From the NCBI RefSeq assembly GCF_016026235.1, contig NZ_CP065613.1: a stretch of 64,000 nt of DNA; one strand, written 5' to 3'. The position numbers and the translations under genes were made by a program. This document shows positions 1-53,112 of this stretch, piece by piece. The DNA is from Escherichia coli. GTDB taxonomy: Bacteria > Pseudomonadota > Gammaproteobacteria > Enterobacterales > Enterobacteriaceae. The first letter of the stretch is position 1. Each line of letters begins with the position of its first letter. The notes under the pieces were generated by a model, which worked only from the letters and a program-made list of their open reading frames with translations, had not been told where the DNA came from and made no database searches.

Positions 1-176
1 CCATGGGTAAATCATTTTGAACGGCTATGGCAGGCGCTTCATGAAACGATAACGCGCAATCATCAGTGCCGGAGATGTGGCAGTTGCTGAAAAAAGTCCA
101 ACACTTTATGGAAACTGCCAGTCCGTTCCCCGGCGGGAGACATGGTCTGGCAAAAGTGTAGCGGTATTAGGCGCAG

Positions 177-865
177 CTATTTAGCGACATATTCCTTTGT
201 TTTATCGTCAGTTCGTAAACGTCCGATAGCGATGATGTGAAGTGCACTATTTGCAGCACGCTCCCCACCCCGATTAAGTCGGTAACGGTTCATTTTTTTA
301 GAAGATACGGTAACCGAGTTGACACCACACAGCACCGCAAAACCTGATTCTATTCTTAGCCGTTGGGGATTATCTCCGGCAGTGATGAGCAACTGCGAAG
401 CGCTTTCGTATCCAACAGCATTACGTTTAATCAGTTCAGGTGCCAGTTCATCGACAATTGCCGCAATCATGACATCAAGGTCGGCGATTTCATCATGTAA
501 CTCGAAATAGCGTCAGGCAAGTGATTTCAATGCAATGCGATAAACGTTGGTAACATTACGATATTCACTGGCACTAGGCTTCCAGGATCCCGGAGTCCTG
601 ATAAGTTGCATACGTGTCATATTTCTGAGTGGTTCGCGTAATTCATCCGGTGCAGAGATAATATAGGAATGGATAATCTGGAGAGCGACTCTGCAGGCTG
701 ATATTGCGGTTTTGCGGCAAGTTTTTGGCATCCGCTTCTACGCCAAATACCTGAAGTAGGAATGGATGCGTTAGCAGCATACATCCGGATCTGCGCGGGG
801 AATAGCCGGAAACGGCTATCCCTACCACAATAGCTAACTTTGTAATAGTGCCCTTTTAGGCTCAT
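177..865 (-). pseudogene. IS110-family transposase remnant (C-terminal portion only, frameshifted)
   Basis: ORF 177..470 (97 aa) carries the IS110-family C-terminal signature VGYESASQLLITAGDNPQRLRIESGFAVLCGV..SSGK..RYRLNRGGERAANSALH; the upstream frames (513..731, 617..865) are broken, and the N-terminal DEDD domain is missing because the LacI-type gene starts at 862. Confidence 0.45.
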
Positions 866-1893: not shown

Positions 1894-2038
1894 TTCGACT
1901 CCATGGATAATTACAACCAGCTGTTTTCATTACTGTTATTTCACCATTACTCTTTCCAGTTTTTGCCCACGGTAGCAAATATCCTGTTGCATTGTATATG
2001 CAGGAACCGAATATAGCCAAAGCATGGCGGCAGAGAAA

Positions 2039-2086
2039 TGATAGCGCTATCACAAAGATTGGTAGCGTTATCAGATAGCGCTATCA
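2039..2086. promoter_or_regulatory. Three LacI-type operator-like palindromes with central CG
   Basis: TGATAGCGCTATCA (2039-2052, perfect 14-bp palindrome), TGGTAGCGTTATCA (2059-2072) and AGATAGCGCTATCA (2073-2086), in the divergent regulator/PTS intergenic region. Confidence 0.5.
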
Positions 2087-2922: not shown

Positions 2923-4179
2923 ATGGATTTCTTTCGTTTTTTGATGAGCGATGTACTTTCCGAACCCGCAGTGCTGGTCGGTTTAATCGCCCTGATTGGC
3001 CTGATTGCACAGAAAAAACCGGTAACCGAATGCATTAAAGGTACCGTCAAGACCATTATGGGGTTTGTGATTTTAGGCGCAGGGGCGGGTTTAGTTGTGT
3101 CGTCACTGGGTGACTTCGCAAACATTTTCCAGCATGCCTTTGGTATTCAGGGTGTAGTGCCGAACAATGAAGCCATTGTTTCCGTAGCGCAGAAAAGCTT
3201 CGGGAAAGAAATGGCGATGATTATGTTCTTTGCGATGGTTATCAACATTATGATTGCCCGTTTCACACCGTGGAAATTTATCTTCCTGACCGGTCATCAC
3301 ACGTTGTTTATGTCGATGATGGTAGCGGTAATTCTGGCAACAGCAGGCATGACCGGCATTACGCTTATAGCCGTTGGCTCTTTGGTTGTTGGCGTGGCAA
3401 TGGTCTTTTTCCCGGCTATTGCGCATCCGTACATGAAGAAAGTGACCGGTTCTGATGACGTTGCCATCGGCCACTTCTCAACATTATCTTATGTATTGGC
3501 CGGTTTCATCGGCAGCAAGTTTGGTAATAAAGAGCACTCGACTGAAGACATGAATGTGCCGAAAAGTCTGCTGTTCTTGCGCGACACGCCGGTTGCTATC
3601 TCTTTTACCATGAGCATAATTTTCCTGGTGACGTGCCTGTTTGCGGGTGCAGATGCGGTGAAAGAGCTTAGCGGTGGTAAAAACTGGTTCATGTTCTCTA
3701 TCATGCAATCCATTACCTTCGCAGCTGGCGTGTACATCATTCTGCAGGGTGTGCGCATGGTGATTGCGGAGATTGTCCCGGCATTCAAAGGTATTTCAGA
3801 CAAGCTGGTTCCGAATGCCAGACCTGCTCTCGATTGCCCGGTCGTCTTCCCTTACGCACCTAACGCTGTACTGGTTGGTTTCCTGAGTAGCTTTGCTGCA
3901 GGTTTAATCGGTATGTTCACGTTGTATCTGCTGAACATGATCGTGATTATTCCTGGTGTGGTGCCGCACTTCTTCGTAGGTGCAGCTGCAGGGGTATTCG
4001 GTAATGCAACGGGTGGACGTCGTGGTGCGATTTTGGGTGCCTTCGCTCAAGGCTTGCTTATTACCTTCCTGCCAGTATTCTTATTGCCGGTGCTGGGTGA
4101 TATTGGTTTTGCTAACACCACCTTCAGTGATGCTGACTTTGGCGCACTGGGTATTTTGTTAGGGATTATCGTTCGCTAA
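2923..4179 (+). CDS. PTS enzyme IIC permease, ascorbate (UlaA/SgaT) family
   Basis: 418 aa polytopic membrane protein with UlaA-like segments (IKGTVKTIMGF, VAEIVPAFKGISDKLVPNA). Confidence 0.85.
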   Translation: MDFFRFLMSDVLSEPAVLVGLIALIGLIAQKKPVTECIKGTVKTIMGFVILGAGAGLVVSSLGDFANIFQHAFGIQGVVPNNEAIVSVAQKSFGKEMAMIMFFAMVINIMIARFTPWKFIFLTGHHTLFMSMMVAVILATAGMTGITLIAVGSLVVGVAMVFFPAIAHPYMKKVTGSDDVAIGHFSTLSYVLAGFIGSKFGNKEHSTEDMNVPKSLLFLRDTPVAISFTMSIIFLVTCLFAGADAVKELSGGKNWFMFSIMQSITFAAGVYIILQGVRMVIAEIVPAFKGISDKLVPNARPALDCPVVFPYAPNAVLVGFLSSFAAGLIGMFTLYLLNMIVIIPGVVPHFFVGAAAGVFGNATGGRRGAILGAFAQGLLITFLPVFLLPVLGDIGFANTTFSDADFGALGILLGIIVR

Positions 4180-4192
4180 TATTTTGATGACA

Positions 4193-4245
4193 TTAATATC
4201 CTCCAGGATTTCAGGAACGTGGAGGATATTAATTCCTCTTATTTT
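4193..4245 (+). terminator. Intrinsic terminator after the PTS operon
   Basis: Perfect 13-bp inverted repeat TTAATATCCTCCA...TGGAGGATATTAA (4193-4232) followed by a T-rich tract. Confidence 0.6.
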
Positions 4246-4418
4246 CTCCATTTTTCTTTCTTCCAGTCAGGACTGCATCCGATTAATCGTAAGGCAGTAT
4301 GACTTTCTGTGAGACAGATGCTGGCCAACGTGGGATATTTAACGCGGGTTAACATCGTTGTCAGAGCCGCATGGGTGAGCTGTTGCTACACCCCGGTATT
4401 TCCACCACGGAGGCCAGC

Positions 4419-5546
4419 ATGAACAACAATAACACATTGTACGTCGGGTTAGATGTTCACAAAGAATCGATTACTGTCGCTTATGCTATCAATTCAGAAC
4501 CTGTTGAACTGATGGGTAAAATTGGCACATCACCTACTGATATTCAGAATCTTTGTAAACGTCTCAGGTCAAAGTCATCGCAGGTCAGTATCGTTTATGA
4601 AGCGGGGCCCTGTGGTTATGGACTTTATCGTCGGCTGGTGAAATCCGGTTTTGACTGCATGGTCTGCGCCCCCTCACTTATCCCGAAAAAACCGGGGGAG
4701 CGGGTTAAAACCGATCGCCGTGATGCCATCAGACTTGTGCGTTCACTGCGTGCAGGAGATCTTTCTGCTGTCTACGTACCCGGCATTGAAGATGAGGCAT
4801 TCCGGGATTTGGCCCGGGCATGGGCATCTGCCCGCGATGATTTACGGCATGCAAGGCAACGTCTGAAATCGTTTCTTCTGGTTCATGGGGTCCATTATGT
4901 CGGGCGAGCAGATTGGGGCCCTGCACACCGACGCTGGCTCAGCAAATACTCATTCGAAAGTCCCTGGCGACAATTAGCTTTTGACGAACACCGTCGTACA
5001 ATAGAAGACCGGCAGGCACAATGTGAACGGCTGGAATCCGCCCTGAAGGAGGCCGTTACCGAATGGAGGCTGTATCCGGTAGTAGAGGCGCTGCAAGCCA
5101 TGCGAGGGATTCAGTTTATTACTGCGGTTGGATTAATTTCTGAACTGGGTGATCTGACCCGTTTTGAACATCCACGACAACTGATGTCATGGTTTGGTAT
5201 CACGCCATCAGAATATTCATCGGGTGGAAGCAGACATCAGGGCAGCATTACCAAAGCCGGAAACAGCTATGCCAGAAAGCTATTGGTCGAGGCAGCGTGG
5301 AGTTACCGTCATCCGGCACGCATCAGTCCGGCAATACAAAAAAGGCAGGAAAATTTACCCCGCCCCGTCATTGACAGAGCATGGGATGCTCAACTCAGGC
5401 TTTGTAAGAGGTATCGAAAACTTCAGGCCAAAGGAAAGAATGTCAATATTACAATTGTTGCTGTTGCACGTGAGCTGGCGGGTTTTATCTGGGATATGGG
5501 CCGAATAGCAATATCTGTCGCACAACAACCACAATGTCACAAATAA
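4419..5546 (+). CDS. IS110-family transposase/recombinase (375 aa from the SD-preceded ATG; the ORF track starts at 4371)
   Basis: N-terminal LYVGLDVHKESI RuvC-like DEDD domain and C-terminal Transposase_20-type region (GITPSEYSSGGSRHQGSITKAGNSYARKLL); GGAGG 7 nt upstream of the ATG at 4419. Confidence 0.8.
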   Translation: MNNNNTLYVGLDVHKESITVAYAINSEPVELMGKIGTSPTDIQNLCKRLRSKSSQVSIVYEAGPCGYGLYRRLVKSGFDCMVCAPSLIPKKPGERVKTDRRDAIRLVRSLRAGDLSAVYVPGIEDEAFRDLARAWASARDDLRHARQRLKSFLLVHGVHYVGRADWGPAHRRWLSKYSFESPWRQLAFDEHRRTIEDRQAQCERLESALKEAVTEWRLYPVVEALQAMRGIQFITAVGLISELGDLTRFEHPRQLMSWFGITPSEYSSGGSRHQGSITKAGNSYARKLLVEAAWSYRHPARISPAIQKRQENLPRPVIDRAWDAQLRLCKRYRKLQAKGKNVNITIVAVARELAGFIWDMGRIAISVAQQPQCHK

Positions 5547-52506: not shown

Positions 52507-53112
52507 TTACTTAGTTTTCAGATCATTTTTAACGCTTTTCACACCATCTACCGCTTTGGCGATACTTTCAGCACAGTCACTTTGTGCCTGAGAATCTACG
52601 GTACCGGAGAGCTGAACCACACCATCGGTGGTTTCAACTTTCACTTTACGTGAAGGAACGATATCGTCCGCCAGCAGTTTGGCTTTGATTTCACTGGTGG
52701 TGGCGGTGTCACCCGCGTAGCCCTTCACAGAGCCTTCTTTAGCGTCGCGAACGTGCAGTTTGTCGCTGACAGAGGTCACGCCTTCAACGCCTTTCGCCAC
52801 TTTCACTGCCTCTTCGGCCTGGGCCTGGCTTTCAACGAAACCGCTCAGGGTCACGACTTTTTGATCGGTTTTGACAGAGATATCGGTGCTCTTGATGTTG
52901 TCATGATCCACCAGGGCCGCCTTCACTTTCGCGGTGATGGCGCTGTCATCCATGAAATTACCGACTTTATTCATAGAGCTATCGACTTTTTGCCCTGCGC
53001 TTTCATTGGTAGTCTGTGCGTTGTTTTCCGCGTAGGCAGAGCCGGTCGCGACGGCAGAGGTCAACATTACAGCCAGCAGAGTTTTCGAAATCTTCAGTCT
53101 TGTCATAGTCAT
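52507..53112 (-). CDS. osmY: Osmotically inducible periplasmic protein OsmY
   Basis: [28 protein letters not shown] signal peptide and two BON domains; 201 aa. Confidence 0.93.

Follow-up and report, generated by a model that had tools for sequence, protein, structure and literature searches.

A conserved array of three probable operators next to a predicted CRP-dependent promoter at the vpe locus of Escherichia coli

Near the beginning of a 64,000-nucleotide stretch of Escherichia coli DNA (NCBI RefSeq assembly GCF_016026235.1, contig NZ_CP065613.1; called the window below), two divergent transcription units are separated by an intergenic region of 270 bp, which carries three palindromic sites, designated O1, O2 and O3. 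On the minus strand lies a gene for a LacI-family regulator of 343 amino acids (862-1893, assigned with Pfam), for which the name vpeR is used here. The other unit, on the plus strand, encodes the components of a phosphotransferase system (PTS). Its first gene, vpeA, encodes EIIA (2164-2607; PF00359, PTS_EIIA_2, and NCBIfam) and is followed by vpeB for EIIB (2623-2910; PF02302, PTS_IIB) and vpeC for an EIIC of the ascorbate (EIIC-GAT) family (2923-4179; PF03611, E = 4e-150; NF006919, 628 bits with a cut-off of 380). A Shine-Dalgarno sequence of vpeA, GGGAG, was read at 2150-2154 on the plus strand, at a conserved block (2144-2153). A terminator-like hairpin 3' of vpeC (4221-4239, plus strand), reported by the consensus scan only, is the probable end of the operon.

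Judged by its gene content and island context, this module of regulator and PTS is the E. coli vpe locus: the regulator and the genes for PTS IIA, IIB and IIC make up a four-gene unit which, in near-identical E. coli loci, adjoins a gene cluster of the kind expected for the deoK deoxyribose operon of an accessory island. The vpe operon has been described as four open reading frames (ORFs) adjoining the deoK operon in islands of pathogenic E. coli, and its PTS as a determinant of fitness in colonisation and urovirulence of these strains (PMC5382810 and PMC6455142, both citing Martinez-Jehanne et al. 2012). A nearly identical module of 3.3 kb was present in 935 of 5,426 complete E. coli genomes. 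In these near-identical loci it was flanked by remnants of transposases and insertion sequences (IS), and its neighbours were a ribokinase, a fucP-like permease, an epimerase and a DeoR-family regulator. A full-text literature search for the operator motif or for vpeR and vpeA returned nothing useful, and as far as that search could find, the operator array has not been described before.

The three sites lie within 48 bp of the intergenic region. O1 (TGATAGCGCTATCA, 2039-2052) is a perfect 14-bp palindrome with a central CG, as an earlier sequence-only reading of the window had claimed, and thus has the form of an even palindrome with a central CG that characterizes LacI/GalR operators. The same reading had noticed two further variants within 50 bp, and both were recovered. 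O2 (TGGTAGCGTTATCA, 2060-2073) has 2 mismatches and lies 21 bp from O1, centre to centre; O3 (AGATAGCGCTATCA, 2073-2086) has 1 mismatch, a 13-bp offset from O2 and a distance of 34 bp from O1. Both retain a TAGCG(C/T)TA core. These two sites had been described as directly abutting over 2059-2086. The pair stood, with its start corrected to 2060, and the sites do not abut: they overlap by 1 bp, base 2073 being common to both. Relative to the vpeA ATG, the three sites start 125, 104 and 91 bp upstream, within the usual LacI-family zone of 30 to 140 bp.

Such a cluster is not expected by chance. A 14-mer with at most 2 mismatches should occur about 0.2 times per 64 kb (862/4^14 per position). When up to 3 mismatches were allowed, the window contained 9 matches, against 2.5 ± 1.3 in shuffled sequences, and none of 100 shuffles reached 9. 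The three best matches all fell within the 48 bp described above, and the remaining six were scattered, with 2 to 3 mismatches each. Two weak palindromes at 52935-52948 and 52971-52984 (2 and 3 mismatches, 36 bp apart) appear, on reading the sequence, to lie within coding sequence and were dismissed as chance matches. The palindrome scan gave no further good operator site in the 64-kb window.

The sequence-only reading had named lack of conservation in orthologous loci as grounds for rejecting the operator assignment. One genome per GTDB species was scanned, which gave 80 loci whose regulators were 54-90% identical; loci from Vibrio and Photobacterium, with regulators 48-51% identical, were added (82 in all). 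The divergent regulator and IIA-IIB-IIC arrangement was kept in 80 of the 80 loci and the divergent gene pair in all 82, and the sites recurred at fixed positions both in this set and in Vibrio and Photobacterium, so that the rejection fails. In the upstream zones (900 bp) of the 80 loci, the motif had 164 matches with at most 2 mismatches, as against 2 in about 487 kb of flanking sequence, an enrichment of approximately 550-fold. Sites at -125, -104 and -91 from the vpeA ATG, with spacings of 21 and 13 bp, were found in Buttiauxella, Dryocola, Enterobacter sp., Citrobacter sp., Yersinia, Edaphovirga and Brenneria, and the Vibrio and Photobacterium loci showed exactly the O1-21-O2-13-O3 layout. 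In Photorhabdus, Providencia, Proteus, Moellerella and Edwardsiella, O1 and O3 were present 34 bp apart and the O2 slot was not conserved. A third layout was seen in Cedecea sp., Klebsiella sp. BIGb0407 and an Enterobacteriaceae metagenome-assembled genome (L023, L025 and L033), which carried three perfect copies of TGATAGCGCTATCA spaced 22 and 22 bp apart. The last of these copies corresponds to the position of E. coli O2, and no site abuts the CRP-like element described below.

O1 was the best-conserved site of the array, being perfect or within 2 mismatches in almost all orthologous loci whose regulator has a single helix-turn-helix (HTH) domain. O3 was conserved in all clades, with the O1-O3 distance of 34 bp. 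When the 31 three-operator loci were aligned, the operators stood out as near-invariant blocks amid variable DNA, and the variation pooled over the operators gave the consensus TGRTAGCGCTAYCA. Because the same O1-21-O2-13-O3 layout is found in the Enterobacterales and in Vibrio and Photobacterium, the triple array is, on this comparison of sequences, ancestral to the split between Enterobacterales and Vibrionaceae, and O2 was lost secondarily.

The spacer and the neighbouring genes showed more variation in some lineages. In four Photorhabdus loci (L039, L041, L044 and L045) the putative 5' leader held short tandem repeats resembling CAGAAGA, in varying number, and a fifth (L046) had a spacer about 370 bp longer, with a large insertion; across Photorhabdus the distance from operator to ATG ranged from 67 to 437 nt. 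In Yersinia pestis NCTC5923 (L018, ~1-2000) the vpe operon appeared to be disrupted, with no match to vpeC, a vpeB cut to 80 amino acids and a transposase-like ORF of 413 amino acids. The regulator and the three operators were still intact at this locus. In the window itself, an intact ORF for an IS110-family transposase (391 amino acids, 4371-5546) follows directly 3' of vpeC, an arrangement that was found in just 17 of the 5,426 complete E. coli genomes. Upstream of the regulator gene, positions 177-865 hold remnants of transposases. The EIIC of E. coli was 87% identical to that of Vibrio (L085, 1687-2943) and 89% identical to that of Proteus, at loci where the adjoining regulator was merely 48-57% identical, and this high conservation points to a very strong constraint on the transporter. 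In other genera, Pectobacterium excepted, the genes 3' of vpeC were unrelated or on the opposite strand, and therefore no inference on the substrate was possible from them. In Pectobacterium versatile (L073, ~1-485, minus strand), an ORF resembling transaldolase/fructose-6-phosphate aldolase follows vpeC on the same strand; it was the sole linked catabolic candidate seen in any genus.

Inverted repeats in an intergenic region may also act as an RNA hairpin or terminator, or as a DNA cruciform, rather than as protein sites. If transcribed, the segment 2030-2095 folds at -23.2 kcal/mol (z = -4.8), and the O2/O3 pair of a Yersinia locus (L013) was flagged as terminator-like. However, stable folding is a trivial consequence of repeated palindromes, and each site is individually palindromic around its CG. 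Of 49 distinct sequences, 31 would have A opposite C at positions 3/12 if O1 paired with O3, and all 49 would have A opposite A at positions 14/1; no compensatory changes were seen. The region also lies between the divergent promoters, upstream of both inferred starts. A known RNA family was rejected, the best Rfam hit having E = 0.49 and 21 bits, far below the gathering score of 90. We therefore regard a structural role of the repeats as scarcely credible.

The locus itself holds a LacI-family regulator gene, the divergent gene at 862-1893, as expected for a local regulon. VpeR has a LacI-type HTH (PF00356) at residues 14-59, followed by Peripla_BP_1/3. The Peripla_BP_3 match extends to residue 343 of 343 and an alignment with LacI shows no extra tail; by these two comparisons, VpeR has no C-terminal tetramerisation segment beyond the core domain. 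For the Vibrio orthologue, the core corresponds to PDB entry 3d8u. The best NCBIfam models for VpeR were the Pseudomonas-type GntR (score 279, cut-off 400), IdnR (208, cut-off 500) and the E. coli GntR (175, cut-off 433). Because all scores were below the equivalog cut-offs, VpeR is a relative of GntR and IdnR but is neither of these proteins. It is 33% identical to K-12 GntR, with a near-identical HTH and hinge. The VpeR family is discrete: it consists of three clusters at 50% identity, after which identity drops to at most 39% (Motilimonas, Gilliamella and Pantoea). The RegPrecise regulator LfaR (6 Enterobacteriales) was considered as a name for VpeR and rejected, its sequence being unrelated. 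SgaR of RegPrecise, the regulator of an ascorbate-type PTS, covers 9 of 12 Enterobacteriales with 34 sites. SgaR has Salmonella STM2345 as its anchor. Neither Salmonella nor Aeromonas contributed a protein to the VpeR relatives of at least 45% identity or to the next-nearest clusters, and SgaR is therefore probably another orthologous group than VpeR.

The recognition helix, MTVSRALR, does not vary among orthologues with a single HTH. In Erwinia, Pectobacterium, Samsonia, Winslowiella and Brenneria izbisi, the regulators are about 396 amino acids long and have two tandem LacI HTH domains, with the helices MTVSRVMR in HTH1 and MTVSRALR in HTH2 (loci L063, L066, L068, L070 and L073-L080, regulator from ~3001; proteins P0041 and P0051). 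The sites of this clade, TGATAGnCATATCA and AGTTAGCGCTATCT, are still 13 bp apart, the upstream member of the pair has lost the central CG, and a degenerate site is found 21 bp further upstream. The candidate target DNA of the double-HTH orthologues is TGATAGnCATATCAGTTAGCGCTATCT. A literature search on tandem-HTH proteins of the LacI family found nothing relevant. The operators change where the DNA-binding region of the regulator has been remodelled, and sites and regulator gene strictly co-occur, which together argue that the neighbouring regulator is the cognate binder.

The sites may in principle be read by a different protein, such as the chromosomal GntR or IdnR or another LacI-family paralogue, the neighbouring regulator being coincidental. 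The half-site pattern TGnTAnCG resembles GntR operators, and E. coli has many LacI paralogues. Against this, the sites co-occurred with the VpeR gene at every locus examined, in at least 4 bacterial families and including hosts with a horizontally acquired module; the motif differs from the gntK sites at the four symmetric positions 3, 6, 9 and 12; and the operators diverge exactly in the clade with the remodelled regulator. A foreign binder is thus very improbable in our judgement. The adjacent LacI-HTH regulator and the palindromes kept at fixed positions in orthologous loci bear out the operator assignment of the sequence-only reading, and the view that the palindromes are LacI/GalR-type operators of the divergently encoded regulator is strongly supported by these sequence comparisons.

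We also considered a special mode for the overlapping pair, in which O2 and O3 would be read by four HTH domains on 27 bp at once, the double-HTH orthologues being a natural experiment on it. Such a mode is possible but rather doubtful. If true, it would address the question of the 13-bp pair (110 operons), which the LacI-family survey PMC4052901 was unable to reconcile with known structures.

Next to the array, a CRP-like site, TGCGAcaatcaTCACA, was found at 2089-2104. It begins two nucleotides after O3, its centre (2096.5) is 17 bp from the centre of O3, and it fits TGTGA-N6-TCACA with 9 of 10 half-site bases. No other sequence of the window matches TGNGA-N6-TCACA. In the 31-locus alignment, its half-sites were conserved and the spacer between them was variable, which is the signature expected of a CRP site. 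The distance of 17 bp between the centres of O3 and of the CRP-like site was fixed in 41 loci, Vibrio and Photobacterium included. Downstream of it, a predicted -10 element of vpeA, TACTCT, lies on the plus strand at 2126-2131, in columns (2124-2132) that are near-invariant, with an inferred transcription start at about 2138. In 45 of 83 loci, a TAnnnT hexamer followed the right CRP half-site at a distance of exactly 21 nt (the background frequency of TAnnnT being 0.022 per position), and the sequence between the half-site and the hexamer was not conserved. The hexamer was TACTCT in E. coli, Yersinia and Erwinia, TACCCT in some Buttiauxella, TACGCT in Brenneria, TATCCT in Pectobacterium, and TAAAGT in Vibrio and Photobacterium. 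From the CRP centre at 2096.5 to the hexamer, whose first base is 2126, the distance is 29.5 bp. The predicted vpeA promoter (PvpeA) would thus be built like a CRP-dependent promoter of class II: CRP at -41.5, the -10 element at -12 to -7 and the start at about 2138. Counted from this inferred start, O3, O2 and O1 would be centred at about -58.5, -71.5 and -92.5.

The sequence-only reading had missed both the conserved CRP-like site and the -10 element. With these, O1, O2 and O3 all come to lie upstream of the likely vpeA promoter. For vpeR, the consensus scan predicted a -35 element, TTGGCT, at 2015-2020 (minus strand, in the conserved block 2012-2022) and a -10 element, TACAAT, at 1991-1996 (minus strand, conserved block 1988-2000), with an inferred start at about 1984. 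The two hexamers are spaced by 18 bp, and their distance from O1 is fixed in Buttiauxella, Yersinia and Brenneria. An identical pair was found in the Yersinia locus L013, and TACAAT or TATAAT was kept in Brenneria. No operator overlaps this predicted core promoter: O1 is situated about 18 bp farther upstream than the -35 element and, counted from the inferred start, would be centred at about -61.5 of the vpeR promoter (PvpeR). In Proteus, Providencia, Photorhabdus and Yersinia, consensus promoter scans gave inconsistent, low-confidence matches that are hints only.

Operators upstream of a predicted class II CRP promoter point to anti-activation rather than to occlusion or looping. We consider it probable that O1 to O3 form the operator array of VpeR controlling vpeABC in an accessory island of E. 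coli, and that repression works by anti-activation with CRP. By what is known of the family, each 14-bp site would bind one regulator dimer, whose two HTH domains would read the TGRTAG half-sites and whose hinge helices would enter the central CpG. O1 may serve as the high-affinity anchor. Without inducer, the bound array would silence vpeABC: dimers on O1 to O3 would cover approximately -51 to -100 of PvpeA, which is the zone where the C-terminal domain of the RNA polymerase alpha subunit (alpha-CTD) docks upstream of a class II CRP site. The array would crowd or contact CRP, O3 being merely 17 bp away from centre to centre, and block the alpha-CTD, leaving the -35 and -10 region uncovered and forming no LacI-type loop. 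It would probably also damp vpeR. Induction would occur when a sugar or sugar-phosphate imported by VpeABC releases the repressor.

The sequence-only reading had suggested cooperative or looping repression and autoregulation of the regulator gene. Cooperative binding is plausible at the two-turn spacing of 21 bp between O1 and O2 and at the universally kept O1-O3 spacing of 34 bp. The 13-bp O2/O3 overlap is a recognised LacI-family arrangement, different from simple side-by-side cooperativity. Looping in the style of LacI is unlikely, because the sites span just 48 bp, VpeR lacks the tetramerisation tail and no distant site was found in the 64-kb window. Autoregulation of vpeR appears plausible, since O1 would lie at about -61.5 of PvpeR and is the best-conserved site.

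Several points weigh against repression by anti-activation. The operators overlap neither predicted core promoter. For simple repression such a position is unusual, and it would be compatible with either sign of regulation. In the three loci with the 22-bp spacings (L023, L025 and L033), the last operator and the CRP centre are separated by 30 bp instead of 17 bp; an operator therefore need not adjoin CRP. Proteus, Providencia, Moellerella and Edwardsiella have degenerate CRP half-sites. The consensus promoter scans count as weak evidence. The simultaneous binding of two dimers to sites 13 bp apart is described as structurally unresolved in PMC4052901. Finally, a TACTAT hexamer that follows O3 by 8 nt in Morganellaceae and Edwardsiella suggests another promoter there, in which O3 would lie over the -35 element or the spacer, and E. 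coli has an equivalent weak hexamer, AATCAT, at 2095-2100.

The last of these points is the basis of an explanation by classical occlusion. The vpeA promoter would then overlap O3, with a -35-like hexamer inside O3, AATCAT (2095-2100) as the -10 element and a start at about 2107; the repressor would block RNA polymerase, and the apparent CRP site would be incidental or would repress the promoter at ~2107. The Morganellaceae and Edwardsiella loci indeed combine a good -10 element (TACTAT or TATTAT) with TAGATA within O3 as a -35 element, and Photorhabdus has TAATAT in the same slot, followed by sequence that varies in length. In E. coli, however, AATCAT with CAGATA would make a poor promoter, and the consensus scan did not report it. 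Loci of the E. coli type conserve the CRP half-sites and not the spacer hexamer (columns 2094-2099 score 40-80%), and a TAnnnT follows TCACA at exactly 21 nt in loci from Vibrio to Erwinia. We consider occlusion a possibility, though an unlikely one.

The upstream position of all three operators relative to both predicted core promoters (about -58 to -92 for vpeA, about -61 for vpeR) would also suit a VpeR that acts as an activator or as a dual regulator. The LacI-family proteins Cra and CcpA activate when bound upstream of promoters. However, the known local sugar-PTS regulators of the LacI family are repressors released by a sugar or sugar-phosphate, and GntR and IdnR, to which VpeR is most closely related, mainly repress. 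The O3 of Morganellaceae coincides in part with the likely -35 element or spacer, which is a repressing position. Activation from these sites thus seems quite unlikely to us, and anti-activation remains the preferred interpretation of the array.

The operator consensus TGRTAGCGCTAYCA, the predicted CRP-dependent promoter and the presumed cognate repressor provide handles for a search for the inducer and for the definition of the regulon, and the same handles could help to explain under what conditions in the gut or urinary tract the transporter of the island is turned on. The vpe locus offers a clean and deeply conserved example of the triple-site LacI-family design with spacings of 21 and 13 bp, and together with the double-HTH orthologues it makes a tractable system for the problem of overlapping operators 13 bp apart. 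Otherwise it is an ordinary local sugar switch, and its interest comes mainly from those orthologues and from the link to a fitness operon of extraintestinal pathogenic E. coli.

Among the systems closest to vpe is the L-ascorbate PTS ula (sga) of K-12, whose EIIC-GAT, IIB and IIA are homologous to those of vpe. The ula locus also has a divergently encoded repressor, but UlaR is a DeoR-family protein with unrelated operators. The vpe locus differs from ula by its LacI-family regulator and by the fact that no linked catabolic genes were found, the Pectobacterium candidate aside, in the gene content of the window and of the orthologous loci. Among LacI-family regulators, MalI is encoded divergently from a PTS gene (malX-malI) with a CRP-dependent promoter, and CytR represses by neutralising CRP rather than by blocking the core promoter. 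MalI operators overlap core promoter regions, and CytR binds between two CRP sites and needs contacts with CRP. Neither arrangement matches that of vpe, with three operators upstream of a single CRP site. In the gal operon, the GalR operator OE is centred at -60.5, directly upstream of the CRP site at -41.5 of the class II promoter galP1, and repression at OE results from interference with the alpha-CTD and not from occlusion. When counted from predicted, not mapped, starts, the positions of O3 in PvpeA (about -58.5) and of O1 in PvpeR (about -61.5) would be similar to that of OE. A second gal operator is located 114 bp away and takes part in HU-dependent looping; unlike gal, vpe has its three sites within 48 bp and no distant partner in the window.

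The pair O2/O3 has a counterpart upstream of K-12 gntK, where TGTTACCGATAAC and AGTTACCCGTAACA follow the TGnTAnCGnTAnCA pattern with a 1-bp overlap and a 13-bp offset, as O2 and O3 do. The second site starts with AG in both cases. The GntR-type architecture, a pair of TGnTAnCGnTAnCA sites with a one-base overlap, was thus found at 2060-2086 of the window as in the K-12 gntK upstream sequence TGTTACCGATAACAGTTACCCGTAACA. The two loci differ at motif bases 3, 6, 9 and 12, which are A/G/C/T at vpe and T/C/G/A at gntK, and vpe has a third site 21 bp upstream of the pair, unlike gntK. The CRP-like site of vpe lies downstream of the operators, whereas at gntK a CRP-like sequence lies, by eye, upstream of them.

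According to the survey of Ravcheev et al. (2014, PMC4052901), the motifs of the LacI family are palindromes of even length around a central CG. More than 75% of the sites lie 30-140 bp upstream of start codons, and about 20% of operons have more than one site, 116 of them three, with divergons carrying more sites. The distances between sites peak at 13, 22 and 32 bp. Overlapping pairs at 13 bp were reported there for 110 operons and as typical of GntR orthologues, with a binding mode left unexplained; according to PMC4052901, they function at gntKU, and more than half of the operons under GntR control have conserved them. Neither VpeR nor the vpe motif was found in the tables of that survey that were accessible. 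The vpe array, with 21 and 13 bp adding up to 34 bp, fits the multi-site pattern given in PMC4052901. It is a textbook instance of a documented LacI-family design. The operator architecture itself is thus already documented in the family, and what appears to be new at vpe is the conserved CRP-like site beside the operators, with the class II geometry predicted from it.

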